Positions 2,952 through 39,190 of a DNA stretch of 64,000 bases are shown here, in pieces; the stretch's first letter is position 1; the number at the start of each line of letters is the position of its first letter. The DNA lies in the NCBI RefSeq assembly GCF_054482525.1, contig NZ_CM137006.1, one strand, 5' to 3'. The translations under genes were made by a program, and so were the position numbers. The notes beneath the pieces were generated by a model. The model was given only the letters and a program-made list of their open reading frames with translations. It did no database searches and was not told the DNA's origin.

Positions 2952-4204
2952 ATGCCAGCACCGGCACTGTACGATATAAACATCCGGTACCGGGGATACG
3001 AATGGAATGACGAATACGCCAGAAAAGGGATAACAACCTTCCTCATAATGGTGAAATCATTCGCTATCGGTTACACGGTACGCGATGTCGCCAAAGGCAG
3101 CTGGATCGACGAATCCACGGTCACGCTACCGAAAGCGCCGCCGCTTAACACCCTGCCTCGGGCGACCAAAGTGCCGGAGCCGCAGCCGCCGCAGGAAGAT
3201 TACACCTTTGAAGGTTACCGCAACGCCGACGGCAGCGTGGGCACCAAAAACCTGTTGGGTATTACCACCAGCGTGCACTGCATGGCAGACGTTGAGGACT
3301 ACGTGGTTAAAATTATCGAACGCGACCTGCTGCCGAAATACCTGAGCATCGACGGCGTGGTCGACTTGAACCACCTCTACGGCTGTGGCGTAGCGATTAA
3401 TGTACCGGCCGCCGTGGTGCCAATTCGCACCATCCATAATATTGCGCTGAACCCAAACTTCGGTGGCGAAGTGATGGTGGTGGGCATGCAGTGCGGTGGC
3501 AGCGACGCGTTCTCCGGCGTTACCACTAACCCCGCGCTGTCGGCTACGACTCTGACCTGCTGGTGCGCTGCGGCGCAACGGTGATGTTCTCCGAAGTCAC
3601 TGAAGTACGCGACGCCATTCATCTGTTAACGCCACGCGCCATCAATGAAGAAGTGGGCAGGCGTCTGCTCGAAGAGATGGCCTGATACGATAACTATCCC
3701 GATATGGGCAAAACCGACCGCAGCGCCAACCCTTCGCCGGGCAACAAAAAGGGCGGCCTCGCCAACGTGGTAAAGAAAGCACTCGGCTCCATTGCTAAAT
3801 CGGGTAAAACCGCAATTGTTGAAGTGCTGTCGCCCGGTCAACACCCGACTAAACGCGGATTAATTTACGCCGCGACGCCAGCCAGCGATTTTGTCTGTGG
3901 CACGCAACAGGTGGCTTCGGGTATCACCGTGCAAGTGTTTACGACCGGCCGTGGTACGCCGTACGGCCTGATGGAGGTACCCGTCATTAAAATGGCGACC
4001 CGCACCGGGCTGGCGAACCACTGGTTTGATTTAATGGATATTAACGCAGGCACTATCGCTACCGGCGAAGAAACCATTGAAGAGGTGGGCTGGAAGTTGT
4101 TCCACTTTATTCTCGACGTCGCCAGCGGGAAGAAGAAAACCCTCTCGGATCAATGGGGATTGCATAACCAACTGGCAGTGTTTAACCCGGCACCGGTGGC
4201 CTGA
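2952..4204 (+). pseudogene. UxaA/GarD-family sugar-acid dehydratase (altronate/galactarate dehydratase-like), frameshifted and 5'-truncated
   Basis: Two ORF-track pieces (2952..3584, 3704..4204) and an intervening segment in a third frame together read as one dehydratase homolog; the second piece ends ...[25 protein letters not shown], typical of this family; N-terminal about 50 aa absent. Confidence 0.6.
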
Positions 4205-4231
4205 TATTCTCTTCATACATTAAGTTGTATT

Positions 4232-4259
4232 ATGCCCGATAACGCTTGTTTATCGGGCA
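4232..4259. terminator. hairpin between convergent genes (putative bidirectional terminator)
   Basis: Inverted repeat gcccgataa...ttatcgggc located between the 3' ends of the dehydratase pseudogene and the minus-strand DeoR regulator. Confidence 0.35.
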
Positions 4260-4266
4260 TAGTGAA

Positions 4267-5091
4267 TCACAGCGAAGACGCGAGCTCCCCGACCAGAATC
4301 ACTTCAACCCCAGCCTTTCGCAAGCCTTCCAGACTATCCGCAGGAATGCCTTCATCAACAATGATCATGTCGATACGTTGAGTATCAATGATCTTATGTA
4401 AACTGGAACGATTGAACTTACTGGAATCGGTGACCACGATGATCCGTTCCGCAACTTCGCACATCCGGCGGTTTAAACGGGCTTCATCTTCATTATGCGT
4501 GCTGACGCCGCGCTCCAGATCGATCGCATCTACACCAAGAAACAGCATATCGAAGTGGTAATTTTGCAGCGATTGCTCAGCCTGATCGCCGTAAAAAGAT
4601 TGCGACTGACGGCGCAAATGCCCGCCGGTCATCAGCAGCTCAACGCCTTCCGCTTCCAGCAACGCATTAGCCACGTTCATACCGTTGGTCATCGCAATTA
4701 CGTCAGTGTGCTTGCGCATCAGACGAGCAATCTCAAAAGTGGTGGTCCCGGAATCGAGGAGCACCCGATGACCTGGCTGAATCAACTCAACGGCAGCTTT
4801 CGCAACGCTGCGTTTCATCGCGGTGTTCAGTGCGCTTTTGTCTTCCACTGATGGCTCGACTGACGGCGTCGTGCTATCGCAGATCAACGCGCCACCATAG
4901 GCACGCACAGCGATCCCCTGCTTTTCCAGAAACGCCAGATCGTTGCGGATCGTCACAGTAGATACGCCATACAATGCCGACAGATCGTTAACCTGCACAC
5001 TCCCTTGCTGTCGCAGACGCTGAATGATCTGTTCTCGTCGCTCGCTGGTGCCTGTCACTCGCTTCTCACCTGAAGCGTCGGTATTACTCAT
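4267..5091 (-). CDS. DeoR-family transcriptional regulator
   Basis: 274-aa ORF; N-terminal HTH ([26 protein letters not shown]) and DeoR C-terminal effector domain; divergent from the downstream PTS operon. Confidence 0.7.
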
Positions 5092-5409
5092 AGTAAGTCC
5101 TTTCGTAAAACTTTCGTTTCATTTCGTTTTGCCTATTAACGCCTTTCTATTAAGCAAATGCAAGCCCACCTTGCCCATTGGCGCAAGCTACTCTCGTTTC
5201 ACTGACTTTCATTATGTTTCTTTTGTGAATCAGATCAGAAAACTATTATCTTTCGTTTTATTTTTATCTCACCATGACGCAGTATCAACTGAAACAAAAC
5301 GAAAGATTAATATCGCAGCAATCTGAACTGGAGAGGAAAGTGAAACATCTGACAGAAATGGTGAGGCAGCACAAAGCGGGCAAAACAAATGGAATTTATG
5401 CCGTTTGTT

Positions 5410-5678
5410 TTGCCCGCTTTGTGCTGCATGGGGCGAGCGATGTGCCGGATGAGTATGTTCGTCGCACCATTGGGCCAGGCGTCTGCAAAGTCAACGTTGC
5501 AACCGAGTTGAAGATCGCCTTCTCTGACGCTATCAAAGCTTGGTTTGCTGAAAATCAGCAGAGCAACGATCCGCGCTTTTACATGCGGGTTGGCATGGAC
5601 GCCATGAAAGAGGTGGTCAGAAGCAAAATCGCCGTCTGCGGCTCGGCAAATCGATTACGGCTACCGGCGGAGGCCTGA
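5410..5678 (+). pseudogene. class II tagatose/fructose-bisphosphate aldolase 3' remnant (GatY/KbaY-like)
   Basis: Only the C-terminal about 85 aa of ORF 5274..5678 ([16 protein letters not shown]...[12 protein letters not shown]...[17 protein letters not shown]...CGSANR) match class II aldolases; the N-terminal barrel is absent. Confidence 0.6.
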
Positions 5679-5791
5679 TCCAACAGCGTATTACCTCAAT
5701 ATTTCAAAATAATTATAAGTCCCACAAATATGAAGGCGCGTCCTTAAACCGGGTAGTGCCTTCCATTATCCTAAAATTCGAGGAGCCCTAT

Positions 5792-7363
5792 ATGACACAA
5801 AAAAAATCTTTTAAATCAAAATTATGGGAATTTTTACAAAGTCTGGGGAAAACCTTTATGTTCCCGGTTTCGCTTCTTGCCTTTATGGGATTGCTGCTGG
5901 GTATCGGTAGTTCAGTCACCAGCCCTTCCACCATTACTAGTTTTCCCTTTCTGGGCGGCGAATTTACCCAGTTGACCTTTGGCTTTATCGCTATGGTCGG
6001 TGGCTTTGCTTTTACCTATCTGCCGCTGATGTTTGCCATGGCGATCCCCATGGGGCTTGCCAAGCGCAACAAAGCGGTCGCTGCCTTTGCCGGGTTCGTT
6101 GGCTACATGCTGATGAACATGAGCATTAATTATTACCTGACGGCTACCCACCAGCTTGCCGACCCCGCCACCATGAAACAGGTAGGACAATCGATCGTGC
6201 TGGGCATTCAAACCCTGGAGATGGGGGTATTAGGTGGCATTGTGGTTGGGGTTATCACCTATTTTCTGCATGACCGTTTTCAGGACACGGTTCTGCATGA
6301 CGCCTTCGCCTTCTTTAGCGGCATTCGTTTCGTGCCGATTATTACCGCGCTCACCCTGTCGCTGGTGGGTCTGTTCATTCCCATGCTGTGGGAATACGTC
6401 GCGCTGGGCATCGCGGGCATTGGGCATATCATCCAGAGCACCAGCGTTTTCGGCCCCTTCCTCTACGGCGTAGGCGTGCTGCTGCTTAAACCTTTTGGTC
6501 TGCACCACATCCTGCTGGCGATGGTGCGTTTTACCCCAGCAGGCGGCATTGAAATGGTAAATGGCCATGAGGTCGCCGGGGCGCTGAATATCTTCTACGC
6601 CGAGCTCAAAGCCGGCCTGCCGTTTAGCCCGCACGTTACCGCGTTTCTGTCACAAGGGTTTATGCCGACCTTTATCTTCGGTTTACCCGCCGTGGCTTAC
6701 GCCATCTACCGCACCGCGCGTCCGGAAAATCGGCCGGTCATTAAGGGGTTGCTGCTTTCCGGCGTGCTGGTTTCCGTCGTCACCGGTATTTCAGAGCCGA
6801 TTGAGTTCCTGTTCCTGTTTATCGCCCCCGCGCTTTACGCCTTCCATATCGTCATGTCTGGCCTGGCGCTGATGGTAATGGCCCTGCTGGGAGTGACCAT
6901 CGGCAATACCGACGGCGGCATTCTGGATCTGCTGATTTTCGGCGTGATGCAGGGAATGTCGACCAAATGGTATCTGCTGTTCCCGGTTGGTATTGCCTGG
7001 TTTGCCATCTACTTCTTTGTCTTCCGCTGGTACATCCTCAAACACAACATCAAAACGCCGGGCCGCGAGGTGGATGTTCAGGGGGCACAGCAAGCCGTCG
7101 AGGCGAACACCCGCGCGCGCGGAAAATCAAAATACGATCACGAGCTTATCCTACGTGCGCTCGGAGGTAAAGAGAACATTGAGTCGCTTGATAACTGTAT
7201 TACCCGCTTGCGTCTGGTGGTGAAAGATATGGGCCTTATCGATCAGCAGGCGCTGAAAGCGGCAGGCGCGTTGTCAGTGGTGATGCTTGATGCGCATAGC
7301 GTGCAGGTGATCATCGGACCGCAGGTACAGAGCGTCAAAACCGGCATTGAAGCCTTAATTTAA
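5792..7363 (+). CDS. PTS EIICB component, glucose/maltose family (MalX-like paralog)
   Basis: ATG at 5792 preceded by GAGGAG; long membrane EIIC domain and C-terminal EIIB with the phosphorylatable Cys motif NCITRLR; colinear similarity to E. coli MalX as I recall it. Confidence 0.85.
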   Translation: MTQKKSFKSKLWEFLQSLGKTFMFPVSLLAFMGLLLGIGSSVTSPSTITSFPFLGGEFTQLTFGFIAMVGGFAFTYLPLMFAMAIPMGLAKRNKAVAAFAGFVGYMLMNMSINYYLTATHQLADPATMKQVGQSIVLGIQTLEMGVLGGIVVGVITYFLHDRFQDTVLHDAFAFFSGIRFVPIITALTLSLVGLFIPMLWEYVALGIAGIGHIIQSTSVFGPFLYGVGVLLLKPFGLHHILLAMVRFTPAGGIEMVNGHEVAGALNIFYAELKAGLPFSPHVTAFLSQGFMPTFIFGLPAVAYAIYRTARPENRPVIKGLLLSGVLVSVVTGISEPIEFLFLFIAPALYAFHIVMSGLALMVMALLGVTIGNTDGGILDLLIFGVMQGMSTKWYLLFPVGIAWFAIYFFVFRWYILKHNIKTPGREVDVQGAQQAVEANTRARGKSKYDHELILRALGGKENIESLDNCITRLRLVVKDMGLIDQQALKAAGALSVVMLDAHSVQVIIGPQVQSVKTGIEALI

Positions 7364-7374
7364 CAGGAGGAGTG

Positions 7375-8550
7375 ATGTTTGATTTCGACAAAATCATTGA
7401 GCGTCAAAGTGATAAGTGCCGTAAATGGGACCATACCTTTGTTTGCTCGCGTTTCGGTGACGTCCCGGAGTCCTTTATCCCCCTATGGATAGCCGATATG
7501 GATTTCACCTCACCACCTGCGGTGATTGACGGTTTCCGGCGCATCGTGGAGCACGGCACCTTTGGTTATACCTGGTGCTTTGACGAATTCTACGACGCGG
7601 TCATTGCCTTCCAGCGCAAACGTCATCAGGTTGAGGTGGAAAAGTCGTGGATCACGTTGACCTACGGCACCGTATCCACGCTGCACTACACGGTTCAGGC
7701 ATTCTGCAAACCGGGTGACAGCGTGATGATGAACACGCCGGTCTACGATCCTTTTGCGATGGCGGCACAGCGCCAGGGCGTGCAGGTACTGGCTAACCCG
7801 CTGCGCGTGGAGGAAAACCGCTATCAGCTTGATTTTAATCTGATAGAAGAACAGCTCAAAACCCACCGTCCAACGCTGTGGTTCTTCTGCTCGCCACATA
7901 ACCCGTCCGGCAGGATCTGGCGCGAGGAAGAAATACGCCAGGTGTCCGATCTCTGTCAACGCTACGGCACGATTCTGGTGGTCGATGAGGTTCACGCTGA
8001 ACACATTCTGGATGGCAAATTCGCCAGTTGTCTCACCTCTGGCTGTGCCGCCCAGGACAACCTGATCGTGCTCACATCGCCCAACAAAGCGTTCAATTTG
8101 GGCGGGCTGAAAACCTCCTACTCCATGATTCCAGACGACTCGCTGCGCCAGCGCTTCCGCCAGCAGCTCGAGAAGAACTCCATTACCTCGCCCAATTTGT
8201 TCGGGGTATGGGGAATCATTCTGGCCTATCAACACGGTCTGCCCTGGCTCGACGCGCTGAACGGTTATCTGCAAGGCAACGCCCGGTATCTGGCGGATGC
8301 CCTCCAGACCCACTTCCCGGCGTGGAAGATGATGAACCCGGAATCGTCGTATCTGGCGTGGATAGACGTAAGCGCGGATGAGCGTAGCGCAACGCAGCTA
8401 ACCCAACATTTCGCACGGCAGGCAGGCGTGGTCATAGAAGACGGCAGCCACTATGTACAAAACGGCGAAAACTACCTGCGGATTAATTTTGGCACCCAGC
8501 GCTACTGGCTGGAGCAGTCCATTAACCGAATGCTGAAAAATGACAAATAA
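7375..8550 (+). CDS. PLP-dependent C-S lyase / aminotransferase class I-II (MalY/PatB-like)
   Basis: MFDFDKIIERQ... N-terminus and overall similarity to MalY; immediately downstream of the PTS gene as in the malX-malY arrangement. Confidence 0.8.
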   Translation: MFDFDKIIERQSDKCRKWDHTFVCSRFGDVPESFIPLWIADMDFTSPPAVIDGFRRIVEHGTFGYTWCFDEFYDAVIAFQRKRHQVEVEKSWITLTYGTVSTLHYTVQAFCKPGDSVMMNTPVYDPFAMAAQRQGVQVLANPLRVEENRYQLDFNLIEEQLKTHRPTLWFFCSPHNPSGRIWREEEIRQVSDLCQRYGTILVVDEVHAEHILDGKFASCLTSGCAAQDNLIVLTSPNKAFNLGGLKTSYSMIPDDSLRQRFRQQLEKNSITSPNLFGVWGIILAYQHGLPWLDALNGYLQGNARYLADALQTHFPAWKMMNPESSYLAWIDVSADERSATQLTQHFARQAGVVIEDGSHYVQNGENYLRINFGTQRYWLEQSINRMLKNDK

Positions 8551-8563
8551 GGATCTTACCCCG

Positions 8564-10453
8564 ATGAAGAAAGTGCTCACTCTCTCACTGCTGGCTCTCT
8601 GCGTTTCTCATGGTGCAGCGGCAGCAAACTACGCGCTCAATAACGACAATATTGCCCTCTTGTTTGATGATACAAACTCAACGGTCGTGGTGAAGGACAA
8701 CAAGGCTAACCATCCGCTCACGCCGCAGGAGTTGTTCTTTCTGACGCTGCCGGATGAGAGTAAAATCCACACCGCGGATTTCAAAATCAAGCACGTCGAA
8801 AAGCAGGATAACGCGATTGTCATCGACTTTACGCACCCGGATTTTAACGTCACGGTGAAGCTGAACCTGGTGAAGGGAAAATACGCCAACATCGGCTACA
8901 CCATTGCCGCCGTGGGGCAGCCGCGCGACGTCGCTAAAATCACCTTCTTCCCGACCCAAAAACAGTCTCAGGCCCCTTACGTAGACGGCGCAATCAATAG
9001 CTCTCCGATCGTTGCGGACTCGTTCTTTATCCTGCCGGATAAACCGATCGTGAATACCTACGCCTATGAAGCCACCACCAATCTCAACGTAGAGCTGAAA
9101 ACGCCGATTCAGCCAGAGGCGCCGGTCAGCTTTACTACCTGGTTCGGCACTTTCCCGGAAACCAGCCAGCTGCGCCGCAGCGTGAACCAGTTTATTAATG
9201 ACGTACGTCCACGCCCATACAAGCCTTATCTGCACTACAACAGCTGGATGGATATCGGCTTTTTCACTCCCTACACTGAACAGGATGTGCTGGGGCGTAT
9301 GGACGAGTGGAACAAGGAGTTCATTACGGGCCGCGGCGTGGCGCTGGACGCCTTCCTGCTGGATGATGGCTGGGACGATCTGACCGGACGCTGGCTATTT
9401 GGCACGGCATTCAGAAACGGTTTTAGCAAAGTACGGGAGAAAGCCGACAGCCTGCACAGCTCCGTTGGGCTATGGCTTTCACCGTGGGGTGGCTACAACA
9501 AACCGCGCGACGTTCGCGTTTCGCATGCAAAAGAGTATGGGTTCGAAACCGTGGACGGCAAACTGGCGCTGTCGGGAGCGAACTACTTTAAAAACTTCAA
9601 TGAGCGGATCATCAAGCTTATCAAAAACGAGCACATCACCTCATTTAAACTCGACGGGATGGGTAACGCCAGTTCGCATATCAAAGGCAGCTCGTTCGCC
9701 TCAGATTTCGATGCATCAATCGCCCTGCTGCACAATATGCGCAGCGCAACCCCGAATCTGTTTATCAACCTGACCACCGGCACCGACGCCAGCCCGTCCT
9801 GGCTGTTCTACGCTGATTCTATCTGGCGTCAGGGAGATGACATTAACCTGTATGGTTCCGGTACGCCGGTGCAGCAGTGGATGACCTACCGCGATGCCGA
9901 GACGTACCGCTCCATTGTCCGTAAAGGCCCTCTGTTCCCGCTGAACTCGCTGATGTACCACGGGATAGTCAGCGCCGAGAATGCCTATTACGGGTTAGAG
10001 AAGGTGCAAACGGACAGCGACTTTGCCGATCAGGTCTGGAGCTACTTCGCGACCGGCACCCAGCTGCAGGAGCTGTATATTACCCCGTCCATGCTGAACA
10101 AGGTGAAGTGGGATACGCTGGCGAAGGCTGCAAAATGGTCGAAGGAAAATGCCAGCGTGCTGGTTGATACCCACTGGATTGGCGGCGACCCAACGGCGCT
10201 TGCCGTGTACGGCTGGGCATCCTGGAGCAAAGACAAAGCCATTCTCGGTTTGCGCAACCCATCGGATAAGCCACAGGCCTACTATCTGGATTTGGCTAAG
10301 GATTTCGAAATACCGACAGGAGACGTGGCGCAGTTTAGTCTGAAAGCGGTATACGGCAGCAATAAAACCGTGCCCGTTGAGTATAAAAACGCGACGGTGA
10401 TTACGTTGCAGCCGCTGGAAACGCTGGTGTTTGAGGCGGTGCCCGTTAACTAA
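8564..10453 (+). CDS. secreted glycoside hydrolase-like protein (alpha-galactosidase-like DDGW motif)
   Basis: Signal peptide MKKVLTLSLLALCVSHGAAAA; LLDDGWDD motif reminiscent of GH27/36-type hydrolases; start alternatively at 8540. Confidence 0.5.
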   Translation: MKKVLTLSLLALCVSHGAAAANYALNNDNIALLFDDTNSTVVVKDNKANHPLTPQELFFLTLPDESKIHTADFKIKHVEKQDNAIVIDFTHPDFNVTVKLNLVKGKYANIGYTIAAVGQPRDVAKITFFPTQKQSQAPYVDGAINSSPIVADSFFILPDKPIVNTYAYEATTNLNVELKTPIQPEAPVSFTTWFGTFPETSQLRRSVNQFINDVRPRPYKPYLHYNSWMDIGFFTPYTEQDVLGRMDEWNKEFITGRGVALDAFLLDDGWDDLTGRWLFGTAFRNGFSKVREKADSLHSSVGLWLSPWGGYNKPRDVRVSHAKEYGFETVDGKLALSGANYFKNFNERIIKLIKNEHITSFKLDGMGNASSHIKGSSFASDFDASIALLHNMRSATPNLFINLTTGTDASPSWLFYADSIWRQGDDINLYGSGTPVQQWMTYRDAETYRSIVRKGPLFPLNSLMYHGIVSAENAYYGLEKVQTDSDFADQVWSYFATGTQLQELYITPSMLNKVKWDTLAKAAKWSKENASVLVDTHWIGGDPTALAVYGWASWSKDKAILGLRNPSDKPQAYYLDLAKDFEIPTGDVAQFSLKAVYGSNKTVPVEYKNATVITLQPLETLVFEAVPVN

Positions 10454-10520
10454 ACGCTTGTCCCAATGAGCAGACCGGGTAAGGCGCAAGCGCCACCCGG
10501 CAAAACCGGCAGCAGGGGCT

Positions 10521-10830
10521 TATTCCCCCTGCTGTTCCAGCGCATACTTATACAACGCATTCTTCTTCACTCCGTGGATTTCTGCCGCCAACGCCGCCGC
10601 TTGCTTCAACGGCAGCTCAGCCTACAACAGCGCCAGCGTACGCAGCGCATCGGCGGGCAGTTCGTCATCCTGGGCTTTATGGCCTTCAATAATCAGCACC
10701 ATCTCGCCTTTGCGAGGGTTTTCATCTTCTTTGATCCACGCCAGCAGTTCGCCGACCGACGTGCCGTGGATGGTTCCCAGGCGGGTGTTCATCACATAAC
10801 GGTATAGGGCATCATTCAGCGGAGCCATTA
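10521..10830 (-). pseudogene. rsmI (yraL)-like 16S rRNA methyltransferase 3' remnant with in-frame amber codon
   Basis: Minus-strand translation gives ...[86 protein letters not shown]; matches the RsmI C-terminus with CAG to TAG at 10622-10624; the 5' two-thirds is missing. Confidence 0.6.
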
Positions 10831-10932
10831 ACAGGCAGCACGCGTCAACCCAGTTGGAGAGTAACGCCGTCATTGGGTTATTTCTTTCCATAAAAATACG
10901 CAAACATGCCCCATACCTCCTGTTCCAACAGC

Positions 10933-12369
10933 TCAACCTTTCTTAATCATTGCCGAAATTGCGCCACAGTCATGAAACTTATCAAAACCAGTGGTGCCTT
11001 TGATATATTCAGTAACCAGAGTACCAATAATCTTAACCGTTTCTTTGTTCGTTGTGATAAAGCCCAGTGGCATCGTTACAGGCAATATTTCGGGTTGAGA
11101 AATATGATAGATAACGGCAGATAACTCATCCTCAAGATGAAGGATCTCAACATTACCATCTAACAGCCCCTCAACTAGTCCTTTAGCGTACTCATGGAAT
11201 TGCCCAAGTTCATACTTCCACTGTCTGGCAACCCGAGCATCAGCTGCATCCCGGACAGGTACGTACAGCACCGGTTTATACAGCTGCTTATCCTTCGTAG
11301 CCGACTTGCTAAGAAAATTGCTCAGGCTTGAGATAAATCGAATGCTTTTTGACCAGTAGGGATCTGATGGTGCCACCCAGATGAACGGGCTACCTCCATA
11401 ATCAGTTTTATCTCTGATACGCTGATTGAGCGCTGGTGCCAGAGCTTTCTGCAGCTTTTCCCAGTTGTTTTTAGAATAAACCGGACCTAAAAAAGTCGTT
11501 CTGCCTGAGGACGAGTATTCTTCCAGTGCTTGCATATCTTTGATAAACAACGGATTAAGTCGATTCGTTTTAGAGTCAAACAGCTTAAGCGTAAGGTCAT
11601 CGTTAATGGATTGCATGGCCTTAAAAATACTCATGGTATTGTTATGCCGTGATAACCTGGCTATCTCAACAGCCATTAACTCATGAACACATTCCGAACT
11701 ATTTAACTGTTCATAGTCTTCACGCTCGACAGCCTTACCATCGCTATCCATTTTAAATTCCGTTGTTAAACGGAGTGGTATTTGCCGCAGCTTATTAACA
11801 GAATTAACGGTATAGATAGAAGGTTGTTCTTTTCCGACCTGAACCTGCAGGTGAGACAGGTAACCTTTATCCAGGATTTGATTAAACTGGTATTGAAAGT
11901 GCTTCTCAACCAGTTTCTCACTTTGAGAAATGTTGTTGTCATCAACCTTTAATGTTACCCCTCCCCTCCAGTGGTCCTGAAAAGCCTGGTTGCTGAAGCA
12001 ACTAAATGTGGCTAAATCAAAGGATAAGGTACAGCCACTGTCCTGAATAGTTGAAAGATGCGGTATCTCGCCAACCTCTGAAAAATAGCCATTTGATTTG
12101 TCTGTTAAGGCCAGTCTGCCGTCTGAGGAGAGCGTCAATTCGCCACGCTGCACAAGATCGGAAATCGCCTCCTCTGTCTCACGGTGGGTCAGGCCGAAAT
12201 AGGTTGCTATTTGTGCTTTGCTCATCGAAGCTACATGAACAAGTCTCAGCACAAACTCCCGGATAAATGGCAGCCCCTTCTGGGAAACATAGGAAAACTG
12301 AATGTTAAACCTCTGTGCTGGCAGCAGGAAGTCAACCTCATGATAGGTAACTTTGTTATCAGATATCAT
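10933..12369 (-). CDS. hypothetical protein (478 aa), translationally coupled to the upstream helicase-domain gene
   Basis: ATG at 12369-12367 overlaps the TGA (12368-12366) of the upstream gene (ATGA overlap); no domain recognised by me. Confidence 0.7.
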
Positions 12370-15300
12370 TTCTTTTTGCCTCCCTGCTGAGCAGAGAGGA
12401 ACCTGTATCCAGCTTCCTGACCTCGCTCAGCCATATAACTTACAACGTAGCCTAATGGCAATTCTTTATTGTTTCCCTTCCAGATATCGGCATTACCCAC
12501 AATCAACAGTCGATCCATTGCGCGTGACATCGCGACATTTATACGGTTTGGAACGCGTAAGAAACCTGGGCTATGCTGCTTATCCGAACGCGTCAGTGAC
12601 AGGATAATGATCCGATTTTCCTTTCCCTGATAACTGTCAACAGTGTCAATTTTAACAATGTCCTTAAATCCCTCGCTCCAGATTTCCTGATTGAATTTCT
12701 GACGGAGTAACCGCTTTTGTTCGGCATACATACATATCACGCCGATAGCGGCTTCATCTTTGCTAACAAGTTTTGAAAGCTTAGCGACAAATTCTTCATT
12801 CTCTGACACCTGTTTAAGAACAGAAATAATCTCGTCAGCTTCACATCGGTTGTAAATGCTTGTTCCGCGATCTTCAAGATGATGTGCTCGGTGGCCCTGA
12901 TTAGCAGTATCAAGCCAGGTTACAACGCTACGTAACGCTTCCGGAGCTTGCTGATAGACATCCGGAATTGCCCGTACTCCATTCAGAAGCTTCCCGTCAT
13001 AAAACGTCTTCGATACGAGATTACCAATCGGTGGAGCCATACGATACTGGGTCATCAAAGCTGCACTCGTCTGCGCACCATAAGCAGAGTTGAAGGCTCG
13101 GGCAAAGTCACTTCGTAATACCTCGTCAATTTCAGTGCGGGAGTTATTGATACCCAGCTTCCTCGCTAATGCCGCCTTGTGGGCATCTGAGTACAATGGA
13201 GGAAGCTGCATGTGGTCACCCACCAACAGGACACGCCGGGCTGACTGCATTGCAATGGCCAGCTCACTTGAAATCGAGCGCGCCGCCTCATCAATAATCA
13301 CCCAGTCATAGATATTCTCCTGAATGCCAATGTGCCCTTGTCCAATACCAACGCATGTGCCAGCCACTAACTGCCTGGAGCGCGAATAAAACTCGTCCAG
13401 GTTCACTCGCTCTCCCGACATAGCATCCTGCATATCACGGGATATTTTAGCTAATGCTTTTACTCGTCTTGCCTCATCAGGTCTGACACCATACTCTGTA
13501 CATAGCTTGGAAATCAGAATGTCTTTTGCTGCTGAGACCTTCACGCCATTGTCCAAGTTAATCCCATACTCCTGACTCAGCTTAGAGCGGATGGAAAAAT
13601 CGAGTTCGACTGCAATATCTTTCAGTTCATTGCTCTCATTTGAATCCGTTAAATTGTTAACCTGATAGAGCAATTTCTCAAGGTGATCGATTTGTCTGAA
13701 CAAATTGAGCTCTGCAAGAACAACACCCGAAATAAATCCCGGCTCAAGACCAATAGCTTCACTCAATGCTTCAACACGGTACTTAATTTCAGCATTGAAG
13801 AGTTCGCGCTTCTCTGTTGTGATTGCGTGTGAGTACACATCTTTTAAGCCAGGGGAAACGGCTCCCTCTCGGTTGCTGAACCTGACAACGTCCAACTCTG
13901 TACCAAGCCGGGAACAATGCTTTCTGATACGCTCGGCCGCTGTATTCACAGCCTCGTGTGACTGGCTGACCAGTAAAATGCGTTTGGTATTCTGTTTCTC
14001 GATCAGGTAGTGAACAAAGGCCGCGATGAACTCGGTTTTACCGGTCCCCGGTGGCCCCTGAAGCAGGGAGAGAGGGCCATTATTGACCAGTTTGTTAAAC
14101 GCCTTTCTTTGCTGTTCATTCAGACTGATCTTGTTTCCGTGCTGATCTTCACGGTCGTATCTGGCAAAATCGGTATCGCTGAGAGTGATACCATAATTTT
14201 GAGCCGCCTGTTTGCAGGATGGATCGAACAAGTCAATTAAGTCAGGCAGCACACTTTCTCGATCTAGGAGACGTTCCAGTGCGCGTTTACGTTTCTGATA
14301 AGATGCACGAGTCGGCCTTGTACGGAAGAAGACAATATCAGAATCCTTCAGCTTGAAGGCTGCTGAACTAACTTTGACAAGACGAATCTCTTTGAGCTCT
14401 GACTTCTTAAGTGACACTTCACCAATAAATCGCTCAACACCTTCCTGATCGACCTGTAAGGCTTCGACTTCATCACTACTTCTGAAAGCACCGAGTGGAT
14501 CAACATCAGCAGAGTAAGGGAGAAGAAGCTCTCCATGAGCATCTGCAACCGGGACCACTTCACCGCTGATTTCAATGTTTGGATAAGATTCTGTTTCAGT
14601 ATCCAGAATGGCGCGCCACAGTTTCACTGTTGGGATTTCCAGCACTTCTCTTAAAGAAGGTTCAAGCGTCTGCTTATCAAGCCTTGCAAAGGTATCTTTT
14701 AGCTGAAGCGTAAGTGGCTCTTGTACCTGAACATCTTCAGTTGCGGCAATCAACTCGATTGCCCGCGCAAAAGATTCTTCTTCATTAAGCAATACTGTCA
14801 ACGCCGACAGATCCTGCGGACTGCCGGGAATAATCTTGATGCCAGTATCAATTTCGAACTGGCTTTCATCAATATCTTGCTTACGAATTGTGACGCGAGC
14901 CCGTGGCCTGAAGCCATGAACCAGCGTCTTCTGATCTTTGTTGAACACCGCAGTAAAACTGCCACCAATCCCAGAGAAAGTCACATTTACTTCAGCTGGC
15001 GCTTTAGGATTTGACTTAACTTTGACATACAGATGCCCGTTATCAGGCAGAATAGAGATTATTTCATCGGCATTTCCTGCAGTAATCTCTATCAGGTCTT
15101 GTTCTGGCACCAGGTCATTACTATCTATCGCTTTTTTAAAGCGGCCTAAATCCTTAAACCCAAAAACCGGATCTTCCAGCTCTGCTCGGATAGCATTCGC
15201 GATTGTCGGATAAATGTCTGATTCCAGCCCCCATGACATGCCTAGCAACTCGCAGGACATCTTCATCACTGCATAGTTGTCACGTTCAAAAGAAGTACAA

Positions 15301-15682
15301 TTATCAATGTATTCAGGGCTGTAACTGTGATTTTTAGGTTCGTCACCGGACGGTGAAAAATCGGGGATATCGATGAGAAAAAGCAAACGGCTCTGTGTCT
15401 CAAATATCACATTGCCAGGGTGGATGTCCCCGTGAGAAACACCCAGACCATGTAAGTGCTCAACGGCGGCGACAAACTTACCAATGAGGTCGATTTTTTC
15501 ATCATCGGGGACCGCTATTTTATCCCAGGTTTCTCCCTGTACCTGATCCGTGACCATATATAGGCTTGATGATTTTGATGCGATACCGAATTCACGAATT
15601 TGAGGTAGATACGTTGTTTTAACTGAAGAAAGCCGCTCAACCTGCTTTAAAAACTTCAGAACCTGGAAATTAATTGACGGAT
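12366..15682 (-). CDS. 3' portion of IS629-split gene: protein-kinase-like C-lobe plus SF1 Upf1-like helicase
   Basis: ORF track 12366..15557 (1063 aa); the frame stays open upstream to the IS629 boundary at 15682 (my manual translation). Motifs HGDIHPGNVIF and IDIPDF (kinase-like), GPPGTGKT (Walker A), VIIDEAA (Walker B), DTVDSYQGKE and VAMSRAMDRLLIVG (SF1 helicase). Confidence 0.75.
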
Positions 15683-15736
15683 TGAACCGCCCCGGGAATC
15701 CTGGAGACTAAACTCCCTGAGAAAGAGGTAAACAGG

Positions 15737-16063
15737 ATGACTAAAAATACTCGTTTTTCCCCCGAAGTCCGTCAGAGGGCGATTCGTATGGTTCTGGAAA
15801 GTCAGGGCGAATATGACTCACAGTGGGCGGCAATTTGTTCCATTGCCCCAAAGATTGGCTGTACACCGGAGACTCTGCGTGTCTGGGTACGCCAGCATGA
15901 GCGGGATACCGGAGGCGGTGATGGCGGGCTCACCACCGCTGAACGTCAGCGTCTGAAAGAGCTGGAACGTGAAAATCGTGAACTGCGCCGCAGTAACGAT
16001 ATCCTTCGCCAGGCTTCCGCTTATTTTGCGAAGGCGGAGTTCGACCGCCTCTGGAAAAAATGA
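15737..16063 (+). CDS. IS629 transposase OrfA
   Basis: 108-aa [25 protein letters not shown]... with HTH and leucine-zipper-like C-terminus; IS3-family OrfA. Confidence 0.85.
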
Positions 16064-16950
16064 TGCCACTGCTGGATAAGCTGCGTGAGCAGTACGGGGT
16101 CGGACCGCTATGCAGCGAACTGCATATTGCCCCGTCAACGTATTACCACTGTCAGCAACAGCGACATCATCCGGATAAACGCAGTGCCCGTGCGCAGCGC
16201 GATGACTGGCTGAAGAAAGAGATACAGCGCGTATACGATGAAAATCATCAGGTGTACGGTGTGCGTAAAGTCTGGCGTCAGTTGTTACGGGAAGGTATCA
16301 GAGTGGCCAGATGCACTGTGGCACGTCTCATGGCGGTTATGGGACTTGCCGGTGTTCTCCGGGGTAAAAAGGTCCGTACGACCATCAGCCGGAAAGCCGT
16401 TGCCGCAGGCGACCGCGTAAACCGTCAGTTCGTGGCAGAACGACCTGACCAGCTGTGGGTGGCTGATTTTACTTACGTCAGCACATGGCGGGGCTTCGTC
16501 TATGTGGCGTTCATCATTGATGTGTTTGCCGGATACATCGTGGGGTGGCGGGTCTCATCGTCTATGGAAACGACATTCGTGCTGGATGCTCTGGAGCAGG
16601 CGTTATGGGCCCGTCAACCGTCCGGCACAGTCCATCACAGTGATAAAGGTTCTCAGTATGTATCGCTGGCCTACACACAGCGGCTTAAGGAAGCCGGATT
16701 ACTGGCATCAACAGGAAGTACTGGTGACTCGTATGACAACGCGATGGCGGAGAGCATCAATGGCCTTTACAAAGCGGAGGTAATACACCGTAAGAGCTGG
16801 AAAAACCGGACAGAAGTGGAGCTGGCCACACTCACGTGGGTGGACTGGTATAACAATCGACGATTGCTGGAAAGGCTGGGCCATATCCCACCGGCAGAAG
16901 CAGAAAAAGCTTATTATGCTTCCATCGGAAACGATGATCTGGCAGCCTGA
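16060..16950 (+). CDS. IS629 transposase OrfB (DDE integrase domain)
   Basis: 296-aa ORF overlapping orfA; DDE transposase core; normally expressed as an OrfAB fusion by frameshifting. Confidence 0.85.
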
Positions 16951-16992
16951 GTTCACAGATAAAACACTCTCCAGGAAACCCGGGGCGGTTCA

Positions 16993-18649
16993 GATCGTAT
17001 CCCTGTCCCCCAACATTCAGCCAAGCCTTCACGAGCCTTCCTTTCGAGATATAGACTTCTTTGTCGACTGTTTCGACCTGAAACTGAAAGCCATCGTCTT
17101 CCGGGTATTGACGAGCGTGATTGATAGCATGTCGGTAAGGGTCAAGCTCAGTATCATCAAATGTTGGAATATCCTTGCCAGCAGGTTCGGCTTGTTTCAG
17201 GGCATCAAAGAATTCTGTTGCAGAAGTGAATTTTGCGGCAACGGCATCCCGTAATACAGATGAATACCAGTGCTGGCTGTTTAGCATGTTGTCCTGTACT
17301 TTCTCCAGACTCTTTGGCGACATGCGCATACCGCTAAATAAGTGCCAGGCGACAAGGCCCAGAGTATGAACATCTTGCTGAAAAGGCGTAAGCTCGCCCT
17401 TATCAAGCATGTCTTTTACGTGGACTGCACCTACGGATAAAAGCTTACGGTAATCGCCAACCGTTCCGGCTGGCTGGTGGTAAGCCGAAATAAAGTTCGA
17501 AAGAGCAACTTCTTTTGAAGGTGAAATCCACAGACTGTGATCGGCGACATCCCTGTGCGCAATTTTCATCTCATGGAGATCACTAAACTTTGCAATGAGC
17601 AGTTTCACCACATTCAAGCGGTCCATATCAGAAAAGTTCTTACCATATTTTCCGATAAACTCATTAAACCGGACATGACCCGGCGGAACTTCGTAGACTT
17701 CGCTATACTCGGCCGTCACCTCGTCTTTCTGAAAACTCGTCAAAGACCTGAGACAGTGGTTATACAGGTCACGATTCTGGTGATTGATGTGCTGTAACAC
17801 TTCGCGCTCACGTGAAACAATCTGAGCTCGTCCTTCCGGGGTATTCGCTTTCGTTCCCGTTATATTTCTAAAATTCCATACTCTGAGTAGCGCTTCGCTG
17901 TTCGTTGATATCTCAGATTTTGCCAGATATTCTCGATACACCTTTTTAGGATGTTCGAAAATCATATCATTAGCTTCATAGCCATTAACTCTCAAGGCTT
18001 TTGGTGCCGTCTGAGGCCCTAGGAACAAATCATCGAAAAGATGGAAATCCTTGTTAAGAACCTTGGTAGCTGGGTGCGGTTTGAAATAGTTATTGAAGCT
18101 CCCGCGATCGGCAAACTTCAGGAAATCTTTTAACGAGATCGTATGGCGCCGTTGTTCCTCCGGCAGCGCGCTGAAATCTGCATTGCCGGTCATCACAACA
18201 AAAAAATGAACAATCGGGATATAGCCTTTGTTCGTAAAACGGTCTACCAGACGCTTGAGTTTTTTGTCCAGCATGAATTTTTTGCTACGAGTCACGCTTA
18301 CTGGCGAGCGCCCCATGTTCTTATCACCTTTAAACCAAGTATCTCCGCGTGCGGTTACAGGCTGATGGTTCCAGTCTTTCAGTTCAACAATGATCACGTT
18401 GCAGTGTGTTACAATAACTAAATCGAATTCCCCCTCTTTTTTTGCCTCAACAAATCGAAAACCTGCATAACCTTTCCAAGGGAACATTTCATTGCCGATA
18501 AAACCATAGCTTTTTAGCTGCTCACTAATTGAACCGCTACGGAAAGGCTTGTCAGGCTTAGATACGTTGACTGAAAAAGCAGCTTTTATTTTCTCGATAG
18601 CCAATACTTCCTGTTCTTGTAAGCCACCATCCCACATTTCTACTTCCAA
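16993..18649 (-). CDS. 5' portion of IS629-split gene: NERD nuclease-related domain plus protein-kinase-like domain
   Basis: TTG start at 18649 preceded by AAGGAG; NERD-like signature EFDLVIVTHCNVIIVELKDW; kinase-like HRD at KIAHRDVADHSLWI and DVHTLGLVAWHLFSG. The annotated ORF runs on into IS629 (to 16832), so its last about 50 codons are IS-derived. Confidence 0.75.
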
Positions 18650-19311
18650 CGGTGTTCTCCTTAAATTTCAGTAAAAATAAGGTCATTTATTCTGGTCAAT
18701 ATGGCAGGTTTCGATGTTTATAGTTCTGAATACTATGGTGTTTTACACGTTCATTCTGGTTATTATACGTAGAAAAGAATTTATCGGGCAACGCCGAGAT
18801 GACGCGGCCCCGTTAAACCGTGTAGTGGTAGATGATGAGATCAGATACAGGGATCAACTGACGGTGAGCGCAGTCCCCACATTTTATCCGGAGTTTACCG
18901 CTATTCCCGGCTGCCATTCGTTAGCACAGGCCCGCAAGTACCCTGATTTGCCGCTGGTTTTGCTTTCCCATCGAAGGGCCCATACATCATCACGCCCGCG
19001 AAACAGTCGACAAAATAACGCAACTTTCTCATCCGTGGATAATACGGAAACGCACTGCACAGGACTCTGCGGTTTACGTCACCATTCAATCCCATAAGCT
19101 TCAAGTTATGTTTGCCCTCAGTGCAGCTAATTCATCACTGTCAGATTTATGAACCATATTCGTTACCTGTATCCGATCCACTGAGGCACCACGGCAGAAA
19201 TTCGGGTCCCCTACACTGATGACAAAGCGCCCCGCCCTCTTCTGCCTATTAACTCAAGCACCTCCCAACAACTTACAGAAACTTAATTCTAATACCTAAT
19301 ACAACTGTAAT

Positions 19312-24179: not shown

Positions 24180-25997
24180 ATGTATAATTTTATCACTATA
24201 ATGTATGATGTCTTTTCATGTTTTGGTGTTCTGGCTAAAAACCAGAATAGCCGTGACATCCGAAATATTAAAAATTTTTCCTCACATCAACATTCACTGG
24301 GCGACATGTTTGATGAATTAATAAACATTATTGATAAAGAACAAGTATTGAGTAAAGAACAACGAAAAGTTATATTTAGGAGATATGAAGATCTCTATGT
24401 TAAGCTAATGCACTATTCTGTTTTTACAGACAAAACACATCAAATAATAAAACAAAAATATTTTAATGACATTGTACCAATGATTCTCGCACTCGACATC
24501 AGGAACACATATCGCCCGGATAATGAGATGGCATTTTACTATCATATTCATTCTTTTCTCACTCAGATACCGGATAATGAGGATGATATATATCATGCTG
24601 CAAGGACATATCTGCGAAATTACGTTAAGTTATGTTTATCCGGATACACGCCAGCGAATGCGCATTTCAAAGATATCTTTGATGGCGTATATGAATTCAT
24701 TCGTAATATTCGCAAAAACAGTACACCAGGAAAAACAAAACTTATCGCAACTATCAACACATGCAAAGAAACCTGTAAACATCTGCTTTATTTAAGTAAT
24801 GAAGACAAGGAAAAAATAATTTCTGACTTAGATAAAGTTCAGGTTGCATGTTATTATCTCACTATATTACTGGCTTTCGAAAGACGAACTTCATTAACAA
24901 GCACCCTGGCAACTTTATATAAAATGCTGATAAGCGAAAGAGAAGTTTCAGAATATGAATGCCAGTTATTATATTTAACCAACCCAATAGATGTAATGAA
25001 TATACTGAACAAATACATATATTACTTTCCTAATGAGAACTCACCATTTTATACACTGAAAATTGACAGTGCATTATCGTGGGATGCCATTGACGCAATA
25101 CGAGACTATAGTATTTCTGATATTTATCTTTATCCTGAACAAAAAACAATAAATTGTGTCGTTGAGATTGAAAACATTGTCTTTGGCGGTTACATTTATA
25201 CATTGAACAACGGCGTCACATTACAAAACATAGAAAACTCTTTAAAAGATTCTTCATGCCATTATGTCTTAAATGGCTATACAGAATTTGTTAACTGTTT
25301 GAGACAACTTACTTCAGGAAAGACTGAAAGTGTTCATCGCACCATCAATAAACTGAACTATGAGAAATTACCTTTTGGATTTATCATTGCCGCGTTTGCT
25401 ATACTAAAGATAGCATTTAAAATAAAATTCAGTAAAAATCATGTAAATATCCGAGCATTATTAAATGACATCAATTATTTTATGACTTATCAGGGCGAGT
25501 CCATTAACCTTATTTCACTGGATCACGAATACCCAGAGTCCTGTCTTCAAAATGACACAAACACATATTTATTAGGAAGAGTAATATTTCTGTATAACTC
25601 AATGATTTATAAGTTCATAAACTGTCAGGAACATGAAACCAATAACATTCACTCAGCTATGATAAATAACCTATTACAGGAAGTTGATATAGCCCTTGGT
25701 AAAATAAATGACATTATAGACAGCAGAAACATATCAACCCCCCATGAACTGGCAAATATTCTTACCCGCGAAAAAATACTTACAACACGGGAAAAAAAAG
25801 GAAACCTGATAAGCCTGTTTGATGGATTCACTTTATTCCATTGTGTTGGAATGATAACCTTTCTTATCCATTATCTCAGAACACCTGAAGAAAAAGTTGA
25901 AAATATATTTATGTTATATGGTGCAGATAAAAACAATAAACTACGCAGAAGACTGATTTATGACGCACTAGGAATAATTCAGTCTCAGCAGGAGTGA
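24180..25997 (+). CDS. hypothetical protein (605 aa), strongly AT-rich orphan gene
   Basis: ATG at 24180 preceded by AAAGGAG (24167-24173); no motif recognised; composition far more AT-rich than the backbone. Confidence 0.6.
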   Translation: MYNFITIMYDVFSCFGVLAKNQNSRDIRNIKNFSSHQHSLGDMFDELINIIDKEQVLSKEQRKVIFRRYEDLYVKLMHYSVFTDKTHQIIKQKYFNDIVPMILALDIRNTYRPDNEMAFYYHIHSFLTQIPDNEDDIYHAARTYLRNYVKLCLSGYTPANAHFKDIFDGVYEFIRNIRKNSTPGKTKLIATINTCKETCKHLLYLSNEDKEKIISDLDKVQVACYYLTILLAFERRTSLTSTLATLYKMLISEREVSEYECQLLYLTNPIDVMNILNKYIYYFPNENSPFYTLKIDSALSWDAIDAIRDYSISDIYLYPEQKTINCVVEIENIVFGGYIYTLNNGVTLQNIENSLKDSSCHYVLNGYTEFVNCLRQLTSGKTESVHRTINKLNYEKLPFGFIIAAFAILKIAFKIKFSKNHVNIRALLNDINYFMTYQGESINLISLDHEYPESCLQNDTNTYLLGRVIFLYNSMIYKFINCQEHETNNIHSAMINNLLQEVDIALGKINDIIDSRNISTPHELANILTREKILTTREKKGNLISLFDGFTLFHCVGMITFLIHYLRTPEEKVENIFMLYGADKNNKLRRRLIYDALGIIQSQQE

Positions 25998-26183: not shown

Positions 26184-27386
26184 TTATTTATTCACAATTT
26201 GAGACATCACATAATCCGCCCATGCCTGCATCATCGGTACACGCTGCTCCAGTAGATCAGTACGATGATATGCCGCCTCAACCTTATTTTTCAGCGTATG
26301 AGCGAGCGCCCTTTCCGCCAGATCCCGCGAATACCCCTGTTCGCTACACCAGTCCCTGAATGTTGAGCGAAAACCATGTGCCGTGGCAACTCGCCCCGGA
26401 ATGTCACTGACGGCTTTCTTTTTACGCAGAAAACTTGTCAACACCATATCGGAAAGGATCTGCTGCTTTCTGGGTGAAGGGAACACCAGTTCATCATGCA
26501 GGCCACGTATATTTTCCAGAATGTAAATAGCCTGCCGGGATAAAGGAACACGATGCTGTAGCCTAGCTTTCATTCTTTCTGCAGGTATAGTCCATACCCG
26601 CTTATGAAAATCAATTTCAGCCCAGCGCATTCCCCTGGCTTCGCCCGAGCGAGTTGCTGTAAGTATCACCATTAATAACAGTGCGCGGGTAACATTATAA
26701 GGTTCATCGGTATACACACTGGTCGCCACAAAAAGCGGTAACTGCCTCCAGGGCATTGCGGGTTGGTGTTCATCACGTCCTCTTGTCTGCTGAGGAAGCA
26801 AATGGTCAACCACATCAACAGGATTTGCTACACAAAAACCGTGCGCCCATCCCCACTGCATAACAACATGAATGCGCTGTTTAACCCGGCTTGCCGTTTC
26901 TGACAAGGTTAACCAGACTGGACGCAGTGTTTCTGCCACGTCCGCAGCCGTAATCGAATCCAGCGTTTTTGCTCCCAGTTGAGGAAACGCGTAATTCTCA
27001 AGCGTCGATAACCACTGCCTTACATGCTTTGGATTTTCCCATCCAGGAGACAGTTCTGCATGTACACGCCTGGCTGCATCGGCAAATGTTGGGATAGCGA
27101 CTTTCTCAGATTCAGCCTTTTTAATCTCCAGAGGATCATCACCTGCAGCAAGTTGCTCTCGCATTATCCGGGCAGTACGTGCAGCTTCAGCAATACTGAC
27201 CTCTGGGTAAGTTCCCAATCCAGCATTACGTCTTTTTTGTGTCACCGGACTTACATAACGAAAAACCCATTTCCCCCGCCCCTTTACTGAAGAAGGATGA
27301 AGGGTCAGTCCGGTAATTCCCCCATGGGGCAATGGTTTGTCATCAGGTTTGATATGTCTTGCTTTCGTATCCGTCAATACTGCCAT
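26184..27386 (-). CDS. int: tyrosine site-specific integrase (P4/CP4-57 IntA-like)
   Basis: 400-aa ORF with phage-integrase C-terminal catalytic region (...HGFRSTFRDW...LAHTL...AYHRTDL); N-terminus lies about 160 bp from the island-end direct repeats. Confidence 0.85.
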   Translation of the reverse strand: MAVLTDTKARHIKPDDKPLPHGGITGLTLHPSSVKGRGKWVFRYVSPVTQKRRNAGLGTYPEVSIAEAARTARIMREQLAAGDDPLEIKKAESEKVAIPTFADAARRVHAELSPGWENPKHVRQWLSTLENYAFPQLGAKTLDSITAADVAETLRPVWLTLSETASRVKQRIHVVMQWGWAHGFCVANPVDVVDHLLPQQTRGRDEHQPAMPWRQLPLFVATSVYTDEPYNVTRALLLMVILTATRSGEARGMRWAEIDFHKRVWTIPAERMKARLQHRVPLSRQAIYILENIRGLHDELVFPSPRKQQILSDMVLTSFLRKKKAVSDIPGRVATAHGFRSTFRDWCSEQGYSRDLAERALAHTLKNKVEAAYHRTDLLEQRVPMMQAWADYVMSQIVNK

Positions 27387-27546
27387 ACGCTAATTCCCGT
27401 CACTCTGGTATGCCATCCAGTATGCCATTAGTCTCTCGCTTCACTAAGAATACATTAGATAATATCGGACAACAAAAAGTGTAATACATTGTTTATAATG
27501 AAATTATATAACACCCCTGGATTAAGTCAGATTTATTTCAGGCGGT

Positions 27547-27606
27547 CCCCCTCACCGCCATATTCAAAGAAGAGCTCGTACGAAAGTGCGAGCTTTTTTT
27601 TCGCAT
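27547..27606 (+). repeat. direct repeat copy 1 containing a tRNA 3'-end-like motif (TCCCCCTCACCGCCA) and a terminator-like hairpin plus T-run
   Basis: Near-identical to 27724-27785 (one substitution and one indel); the ...CTCACCGCCA end resembles the acceptor/CCA end of tRNA-Ser. Confidence 0.5.
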
Positions 27607-27723: not shown

Positions 27724-27785
27724 CCCCCCCCTCACCGCCATATTCAAAGAAGAGCTCGTACGAAAGTACGAGTTTTTTTTCGCAT
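27724..27785 (+). repeat. direct repeat copy 2 containing a tRNA 3'-end-like motif (AATCCCCCCCCTCACCGCCA) and a terminator-like hairpin plus T-run
   Basis: See copy 1; this copy has a longer match to a tRNA-Ser T-arm/acceptor 3' strand, but no complementary 5' acceptor strand (GGTGAGG) exists upstream, so it is not an intact tRNA. Confidence 0.5.
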
Positions 27786-28083
27786 TTTATCTGCCTGTAC
27801 GGCAGTGAACGGTATAAAAATCGAGTTTTTCTTTCGGTTGGCTTTCTAAGCTGCCTGTACGGCAGTGAACTCAAATACTACACGTCTAGCCCGTTGTTAA
27901 TAAAGCAAAACCATCTCATTTTCCTGCTACCACCCTTTTTTATCCTTACCTTCCCGCAGCACTAATTATCAACAACTTACAATCATCATCAAAAAAAGGG
28001 TCTGAACCTCCTCCACCCCATAAATAAAAAGTCCGTAACCTCTTTCGAGATTACGGACTTCACCAACCTACCTAACAATTAGA

Positions 28084-35731: not shown

Positions 35732-35782
35732 AGGCTTTATCTCACAGCAGTAAATTAAAATTTTTGCGTTTTAACCCTTCAC

Positions 35783-36005: not shown

Positions 36006-36018
36006 TTATTCCATAAGT

Positions 36019-38132: not shown

Positions 38133-38138
38133 GATTAT

Positions 38139-39140: not shown

Positions 39141-39190
39141 TTGTTTTTTTTCCTGCATACTGCATTTGTTTTTTGTGAGGGGTACACAAC

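Follow-up and report, generated by a model that had tools for sequence, protein, structure and literature searches.

RsmI (YraL) is the 16S rRNA C1402 2'-O-methyltransferase of the Enterobacteriaceae. The locus described here holds a remnant of an rsmI gene whose translation is 88% identical to RsmI over residues 204-287. It differs from a functional rsmI in that the N-terminal methyltransferase domain (residues 1-203), the start codon and the promoter are absent, an amber codon interrupts the frame, and the sequence does not lie beside lpoA. Like the rsmI genes of Enterobacter and Yokenella, the remnant has kept its convergence with a hydrolase gene across a spacer of ~66-80 nt. In the carriers inspected among RefSeq E. 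coli, PGAP calls the same feature as a pseudogene at the same position. That annotation gives the remnant no origin; its membership in a garD-rsmI block of Enterobacter-type gene order was worked out in the present analysis.

The remnant lies within a genomic island. A serX/serW island of the SRL type has been described as a pathogenicity island, and the left part of the present cargo resembles such an island in content (PMC7545054). The P4-type integrase, tRNA-Ser 3'-end repeats, fec genes and aspartate racemase/dcuA genes of the serX/serW islands (SRL PAI, PAI-CFT073-serX; PMC7545054) are found here as well. As in mosaic E. coli islands, many IS scraps part the cargo modules, and the remnant stands between two of these modules next to an IS66 scrap. 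Unlike the usual island remnants, its source is a housekeeping gene of a foreign core chromosome instead of a mobile-element gene, and the donor locus can be recognised by synteny. In the literature on malX, serX, serW and yraL islands, no paper describing the remnant was found.

The window, meaning the whole stretch of 64,000 nucleotides (contig NZ_CM137006.1) that was analysed, comes from an E. coli chromosome; many complete genomes matched a 601-nt query centred on the remnant at 100% identity. The best explanation of the feature, to which we give a probability of roughly 85%, is that it is the dead remnant of another enterobacterium's rsmI, reduced to the last 84 codons, imported as cargo and cut at an IS66-linked scar.

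Results

Extent of the remnant and the amber codon

When E. coli RsmI was compared with the 64-kb window by tblastn, one significant match was obtained, residues 204-287 at 10774-10523 on the minus strand (88% identity, E = 2e-32). A repeat with the K-12-type RsmI from locus L004 again returned residues 204-287 only, and residues 1-203 had no match anywhere in the 64 kb (tblastn). The matching residues align to the remnant gap-free, and nucleotide homology reaches 10782, with a 1-nt deletion near the break (blastn, alignments).

10520-10782, minus strand: 3' remnant of a foreign rsmI, codons 204-287 in frame at 10523-10774, stop codon TAA at 10520-10522
10622-10624, minus strand: amber codon TAG at the Gln253 position, CAG in orthologs (alignment, translations)

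The alignment of three nucleotide sequences (from K-12-type E. coli, E. quasihormaechei and E. hormaechei) has CAG at codon 253, and residue 253 was Q in 12 of 12 orthologs translated. The amber codon is no sequencing error, as all six independent copies inspected, from two island lineages, have it. In the carrier genomes inspected, NCBI PGAP describes the remnant as '16S rRNA methyltransferase; internal stop; incomplete; missing N-terminus'; it is an ordinary pseudogene remnant, already annotated by NCBI.

The sequence-only reading had recognised an rsmI-like 3' fragment with a CAG to TAG change, and this was borne out by tblastn, the alignments and the orthologs. It had drawn the fragment from 10521 to 10830; rsmI extends to 10782, but 10783-10830 belongs to an IS66-family transposase fragment. 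Only the 3' part of the gene is present, as it had said, although the retained part is the last 29% of rsmI (84 codons), less than the full third that it had named.

Native rsmI and distribution of the remnant in E. coli

A 252-nt query taken from the remnant matched 5424 of 5426 complete E. coli genomes, and the matches fell into three identity classes: 298 records at 99% or above, 217 at 95-99%, and 4912 at only 80-90%. The last class is the annotated native rsmI, which is 84.5-86.5% identical to the remnant. Carriers of the remnant number ~515 of the 5426 complete genomes (~9.5%). The carriers listed have two matching places each, and essentially all carriers also have a full-length native rsmI. 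With thresholds of at least 90% identity and at least 80% coverage against the K-12-type gene, full-length rsmI was counted in 5423 of the 5426 genomes. The 5' 596 nt of rsmI, searched in the same sensitive mode that picks up the 85% identical remnant, proved essentially single-copy per genome (5426 places in 5424 genomes), and a second copy of the 5' part was found in none of the complete E. coli genomes searched. Because the full-length native gene is near-universal and its 5' part is single, these bacteria have kept their own rsmI, and the remnant is a second, diverged orphan copy.

These counts bear on the idea that the region is the degraded native rsmI locus of this genome, with no other rsmI present, which the sequence-only reading had itself named as the outcome that would overturn it. 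The sole support for this idea is the presence of rsmI-like sequence. Against it stand the near-universal native gene, the two places in each carrier, the identity of only ~85% between the remnant and E. coli rsmI, and the location in an island at clpA/serW, not next to lpoA; it is already refuted, and its probability is practically nil. The same reading had proposed that an intact rsmI be looked for elsewhere in the genome, which the count of full-length genes provides, and it had correctly stated that this is not the position where rsmI is expected.

A captured chromosomal block with the remnant at its right end

The remnant forms the right end, and a garD pseudogene the left end, of a block that runs colinear with the K-12-type garD..rsmI region in the same orientation. 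The K-12-type order in E. coli is garD-prlF-yhaV-agaR-kbaZ-aga genes-kbaY-agaBCDI-yraHIJK, followed by convergent rsmI and then lpoA.

3066-10782, 7.7 kb: captured chromosomal block garD'-agaR-kbaZ'/'kbaY-malX-malY-'enterotoxin'-'rsmI, truncated at both ends (blastn, tblastn, colinearity)
3066-4204, plus strand: garD pseudogene, starting from residue 73, without residues 216-281, frameshifted, 80-90% nucleotide identity to the K-12-type gene
4267-5091, minus strand: intact agaR, 99.6% amino acid and 98.7% nucleotide identity to E. coli K-12-type
5338-5676, plus strand: kbaZ'/'kbaY fusion, a kbaZ 5' stub of 33 codons followed by the 3' end of kbaY (residues 205-284)
5421-5654: kbaY 3' end, 77% nucleotide identity to K-12-type
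5756-7363, plus strand: intact malX (ORF, PGAP name)
7372-8550, plus strand: intact malY/patB (ORF, PGAP name)
8540-10453, plus strand: intact 'enterotoxin' gene, 637 aa, putative exported alpha-N-acetylgalactosaminidase
10454-10519: intergenic spacer between the convergent 'enterotoxin' and rsmI stops, inside the single colinear match to Enterobacter loci
10523-10781: rsmI', 85% nucleotide identity to K-12-type

The garD pseudogene covers residues 73-215 and ~282-522 and is given by PGAP as 'UxaA family hydrolase; frameshifted; internal stop; missing N-terminus'. Between kbaZ' and 'kbaY the interior of the aga operon has been deleted, and PGAP annotates the fusion as two partial class II aldolase pseudogenes. 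Nucleotide identity to K-12-type is 98.7% across 4285-5409, which holds agaR and the kbaZ promoter and start, versus 77-90% in the rest of the block, and the switch from E. coli-like to Enterobacter-like DNA at 5409/5421 falls exactly at the kbaZ'/'kbaY fusion. The block is a mosaic. With agaR 98.7% like E. coli's own, part of it may have come from E. coli or been gene-converted, and the similarity of the agaR segment suggests the aga locus of the host as its source or as its partner in conversion. The fusion also sets malX-malY-'enterotoxin' directly downstream of the AgaR-controlled kbaZ promoter region.

The 637-aa product, in which no Pfam domain was found, is named predicted exported alpha-N-acetylgalactosaminidase or YacT in some sources. 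The spacer that follows it holds a palindrome, ccgggtaaggcgcaagcgccacccgg (10470-10500), which we read as REP-like. The classical ExPEC 'malX PAI marker' primers, in the form that we presume for their sequences, gave no match within 3 mismatches in the window, and the malX found here is not claimed as that marker.

Donor-type loci

A scan with the 637-aa protein of GTDB r220, one genome per bacterial species, returned 62 loci. The native loci of E. hormaechei, E. quasihormaechei, E. cloacae M-7 and Yokenella run kbaZ...kbaY-malX-malY-'enterotoxin', followed by a convergent full-length rsmI (286 aa) and lpoA. Other Enterobacter, Lelliottia, Kosakonia, Raoultella and Klebsiella have garD-agaR-kbaZ...kbaY-'enterotoxin'-rsmI-lpoA without malXY. 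The stretch 5421-10781 matched the three E. hormaechei-group loci (E. hormaechei, E. quasihormaechei and E. cloacae M-7) as one uninterrupted colinear alignment at ~86% nucleotide identity. All three alignments end at 10778-10781, and rsmI runs on in those genomes. Amino acid identity of the malX, malY and 'enterotoxin' products to their E. hormaechei-group orthologs was 92-95%, and the remnant was 82-85% identical to Enterobacter rsmI. Because the colinear alignment ends at the break, the remnant is the right end of a copied enterobacterial aga-rsmI locus.

The best named sources of the 637-aa protein were Enterobacter (91-92%), Scandinavium (86%) and Yokenella (84%). Neither the GTDB r220 scan nor a search of 5.8 billion proteins yielded a donor closer than ~86% at the nucleotide level (92% amino acid identity for the neighbouring hydrolase). 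When the closest full-length RsmI was sought with the 84-aa translation, short fragments only were obtained, at most 93% identical in partial alignments and at most 90% identical along the whole query, and no donor; the short related proteins from the database search carry PF23016.

PLSDB gave no evidence that a plasmid carries the block: its matches were chromosomes under a wrong label, the IS66 scrap alone, or an E. coli record of 37.9 kb that breaks off within the block. Two records binned as 'Collinsella sp.' and 'Lachnospiraceae bacterium' MAGs (JAIJJM010000184.1 and SFGN01000089.1) were 99.9-100% identical to the island segment and are almost certainly mis-binned E. coli DNA.

The break and the IS66 scar

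Base-by-base comparison placed the end of rsmI' between 10782 and 10783, with one nucleotide of possible overlap. The sequences to the right are:

10783-10868, minus strand: internal fragment of an IS66-family transposase gene (tnpC), ~88 nt, ISEc23/ISEc43-like, 92-94% identity
10933-12369, minus strand: mkoB of the Mokosh type I defence system (PADLOC MkoB, E = 1.9e-151), right neighbour of the IS66 scar

The 82-86 nt to the right of the junction (to 10864-10868) match IS66-family tnpC interiors at thousands of chromosomal and plasmid places. In JJ1886 the fragment corresponds to ~codons 234-263 of a tnpC gene of 537 codons, in the same orientation. A complete IS66 element (tnpA-tnpB-tnpC with terminal inverted repeats) was not found at the scar, where the tnpC interior alone remains, and GTAAGCG, which we take to be the terminal inverted repeat motif of IS66, was absent at both ends of the 7.7-kb block. 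Because the scrap is internal to tnpC, both of its ends are deletion junctions, and the structure is the scar of a rearrangement and not the product of a clean IS insertion.

The same rsmI'/IS66' junction was found in a second island lineage (B2-type; strain MS15046, with an aryl-polyene gene cluster to the left). There the IS66 scrap is longer, is named as an IS66 fragment by PGAP, and leads straight into a Gp2/YfjJ-type backbone gene. In the lineage of the window, the Mokosh type I operon sits between the IS66 scrap and the Gp2/YfjJ-type gene; mkoB is not in the B2-type variant. The 'plasmid' copy CP061233.1 (92.6% identical), which has the B2-type context with few genes annotated, was not treated as a distinct lineage; the sparse annotation could reflect an error-rich assembly or an incomplete gene table in PLSDB.

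The Mokosh type I anti-phage system spans 10933-18649 on the minus strand. An IS3-family insertion, recognised by an ALIL frameshift pseudoknot (16018-16134) and a transposase ORF (16060-16950), divides its mkoA gene into two parts, 12366-15557 (profile positions 568-1603) and 16832-18649 (profile positions 1-527). Other carriers, e.g. strain UK_Dog_Liverpool, have an intact mkoA of 1652 aa. A frameshifted fragment that PGAP names 'TOTE conflict system archaeo-eukaryotic primase domain' (~18830-19170; 27110-27445 in locus L001) lies between mkoA and the Gp2-type gene and is another decayed defence-related remnant.

Coding capacity and function

The C-terminal homology described above is the part of RsmI that the remnant retains. 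It holds no SAM-dependent catalytic domain of the tetrapyrrole-methylase fold (residues ~1-220 of RsmI) and no uninterrupted frame with a start codon, as the TAG codon breaks the frame, which is also lost at the IS66 junction, upstream of codon 204. It is truncated and has an intact copy elsewhere in the genome, as is proper to a pseudogene. No promoter-like site was found in 10300-11100. A chimeric ORF of 104 codons (10622-10936) runs through the junction; its apparent start is no more than the first TTG in frame behind the mkoB stop codon, and it has no Pfam match. As the remnant lacks a catalytic domain, a start codon and a promoter-like site, and has an amber codon in frame, we conclude that it is without a function of its own.

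Its position directly behind mkoB, in the same orientation, together with the REP-like palindrome at 10470-10500, would fit a co-option, in which the remnant serves as a 3' untranslated tail of mkoA-mkoB ending at the REP-like hairpin, or in which the chimeric ORF supplies a small protein. We regard this as very improbable, given that the B2-type variant retains the remnant without Mokosh, that the differences between the two variants are mostly non-synonymous, and that the chimeric ORF lacks both a Pfam match and a promoter-like site and starts merely where the first TTG past the mkoB stop happens to be. At most, the dead remnant is passively transcribed as the tail of the mkoAB message.

Age and selection

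Comparisons of the remnant with functional orthologs gave dS of ~0.7-0.8 and dN/dS of 0.06-0.09 (36-43 substitutions), versus dS of 0.4-0.75 and dN/dS of 0.03-0.044 among the functional orthologs themselves; the ratio is thus about double for the remnant, on small counts. Most of the divergence is synonymous and therefore arose in a functional gene, in a lineage about equidistant from Escherichia and Enterobacter. At positions that are invariant in the orthologs, the remnant alone has AP to TS, V to I, R to P, V to I and K to Q, a pattern of substitutions that suggests some later decay. The two island variants (98% identical) differ in this region by 1 synonymous and 4 non-synonymous changes, a dN/dS of ~1.2 from 5 differences only, which would fit the pattern expected of neutral decay. 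Both lineages share the junction and the amber codon, and since both carry the amber codon, inactivation is older than their split.

Island context

The integrase side of the island is marked by the following features:

26184-27386, minus strand: P4-type tyrosine integrase of the island (PGAP, ORF)
27547-27560 and 27727-27740, plus strand: two copies of the tRNA-Ser 3' end, CCCCCTCACCGCCA, each then followed by the same terminator-like hairpin, att-type repeats

The integrase-side end of the island is just right of the integrase, and the remnant is ~16.6 kb from the integrase end. To the right of the repeats come an orphan type I-F CRISPR repeat (27843-27870) and then clpA, the marker of the serW attachment region. 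The search pattern CCCCCTCACCGCCA, which we assume to be the tRNA-Ser 3'-end sequence, was not found near the remnant (10.5-10.9 kb); elsewhere in the window it had one chance-level site with 2 mismatches, at 56988. ARAGORN found no tRNA in the window, and an intact serW must lie beyond its left end. In matching genomes, PGAP labels the tandem tRNA-Ser 3'-end/terminator units 'RtT sRNA'. The CRISPR repeat is a match to Rfam CRISPR-DR4 and belongs to type I-F array remnants, with a second repeat-like copy near 27790-27810. A 605-aa ORF (24180-25997, plus strand) with no Pfam or PADLOC match adjoins the island integrase and is kept in all island variants inspected.

Between clpS and cspD, at ~31780-41620 on the minus strand, there is a further integrative element, separate from the island. 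It holds an integrase (40381-41619), a DNA primase (36019-37851), a fusion of ClpP-like prohead protease and major capsid protein (32524-34437), Icd-like and AlpA-type genes, a C4 antisense RNA (38695-38782) and isrK (38807-38883), and looks like a P4-like or capsid-forming phage satellite.

Leftward, the genome NZ_CP026723.1, which matches the window, shows island cargo extending for at least 48 kb, with sugar-utilisation genes, IS100/IS200/IS600/IS1/IS3, aspartate racemase-dcuA, an amino-acid decarboxylase/antiporter, shf-capU-virK-lpxM and fecABCDE. The 1 kb left of garD' is of island backbone type and recurs in other E. coli islands, close to genes of the YagK/YfjJ and UCP030791 types. The suggestion that the fragment could mark the left boundary of the island fails on these grounds, together with the lack of an att-type repeat nearby; what the remnant marks is a seam inside the island, where two cargo modules meet.

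The fragment had also been ascribed to the island's previous host or insertion site. The foreign origin stands, as the block is foreign and of an Enterobacter/Yokenella-type locus, but an insertion-site end is unlikely. A carry-over of the insertion site, by imprecise excision beside rsmI in a former host, would make the remnant an ancient end of the element, and it would agree with the block being foreign chromosomal DNA and with the B2-type variant, in which only ~150 nt part the block from the Gp2/YfjJ-type backbone gene of the integrase module. This history is nevertheless unlikely. Island-type sequence lies on both sides of the block, the att-type repeats are only at 27547 and 27727, and the rsmI break adjoins an internal IS66 fragment and no element terminus. 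Moreover, rsmI is no integration site of the tRNA type, and in the donor-type loci rsmI has the hydrolase gene and lpoA as its direct neighbours, and no integrase lies between or immediately beside these genes.

Discussion

We favour the import of the remnant as cargo, in which a piece of foreign chromosome now sits in an E. coli tRNA-Ser island (serW/serX-type, SRL-PAI-like). The donor locus would have had the order garD, agaR, aga operon, malX, malY, the exported glycosidase 'enterotoxin', convergent rsmI and lpoA. An IS66-family element probably sat in or beside the imported rsmI, and later deletions would have taken most of the IS along with the 5' two-thirds of rsmI. The amber codon is an additional inactivating mutation, older than the split of the two lineages. 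A history that involves an IS66 element is the most likely one because the end of rsmI abuts an internal tnpC scrap; the order of events and the part played by the IS in the truncation are inferred, the latter from adjacency only. The analysis shows directly what the remnant is, its truncation and amber codon, the foreign-type synteny, the IS66 junction and the native rsmI elsewhere in the genome.

The remnant is of little importance in itself, being non-functional and flagged as a pseudogene by NCBI in hundreds of genomes. Its value is that of a landmark: the fixed neighbourhood of rsmI identifies the malX-malY-glycosidase cargo as a captured Enterobacter-type aga-rsmI locus, and the remnant pins one end of the capture to an IS66-associated scar. 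What it adds is limited to this point, that the adjacent cargo is such a captured locus and ends at such a scar. The junction and the amber codon are together a shared derived character of the two island lineages, which ~9.5% of the complete E. coli genomes carry.

Tentatively, and with somewhat better odds against it than for it, the remnant may be a fossil of an aga/rsmI locus from an unsampled lineage with the E. hormaechei gene order, moved into the tRNA-Ser island, where the kbaZ'/'kbaY fusion put malX-malY-glycosidase behind an E. coli-type agaR/kbaZ promoter region. If this is true, a foreign module for GalNAc-related uptake and hydrolysis would have been rewired under the AgaR regulon of the host.
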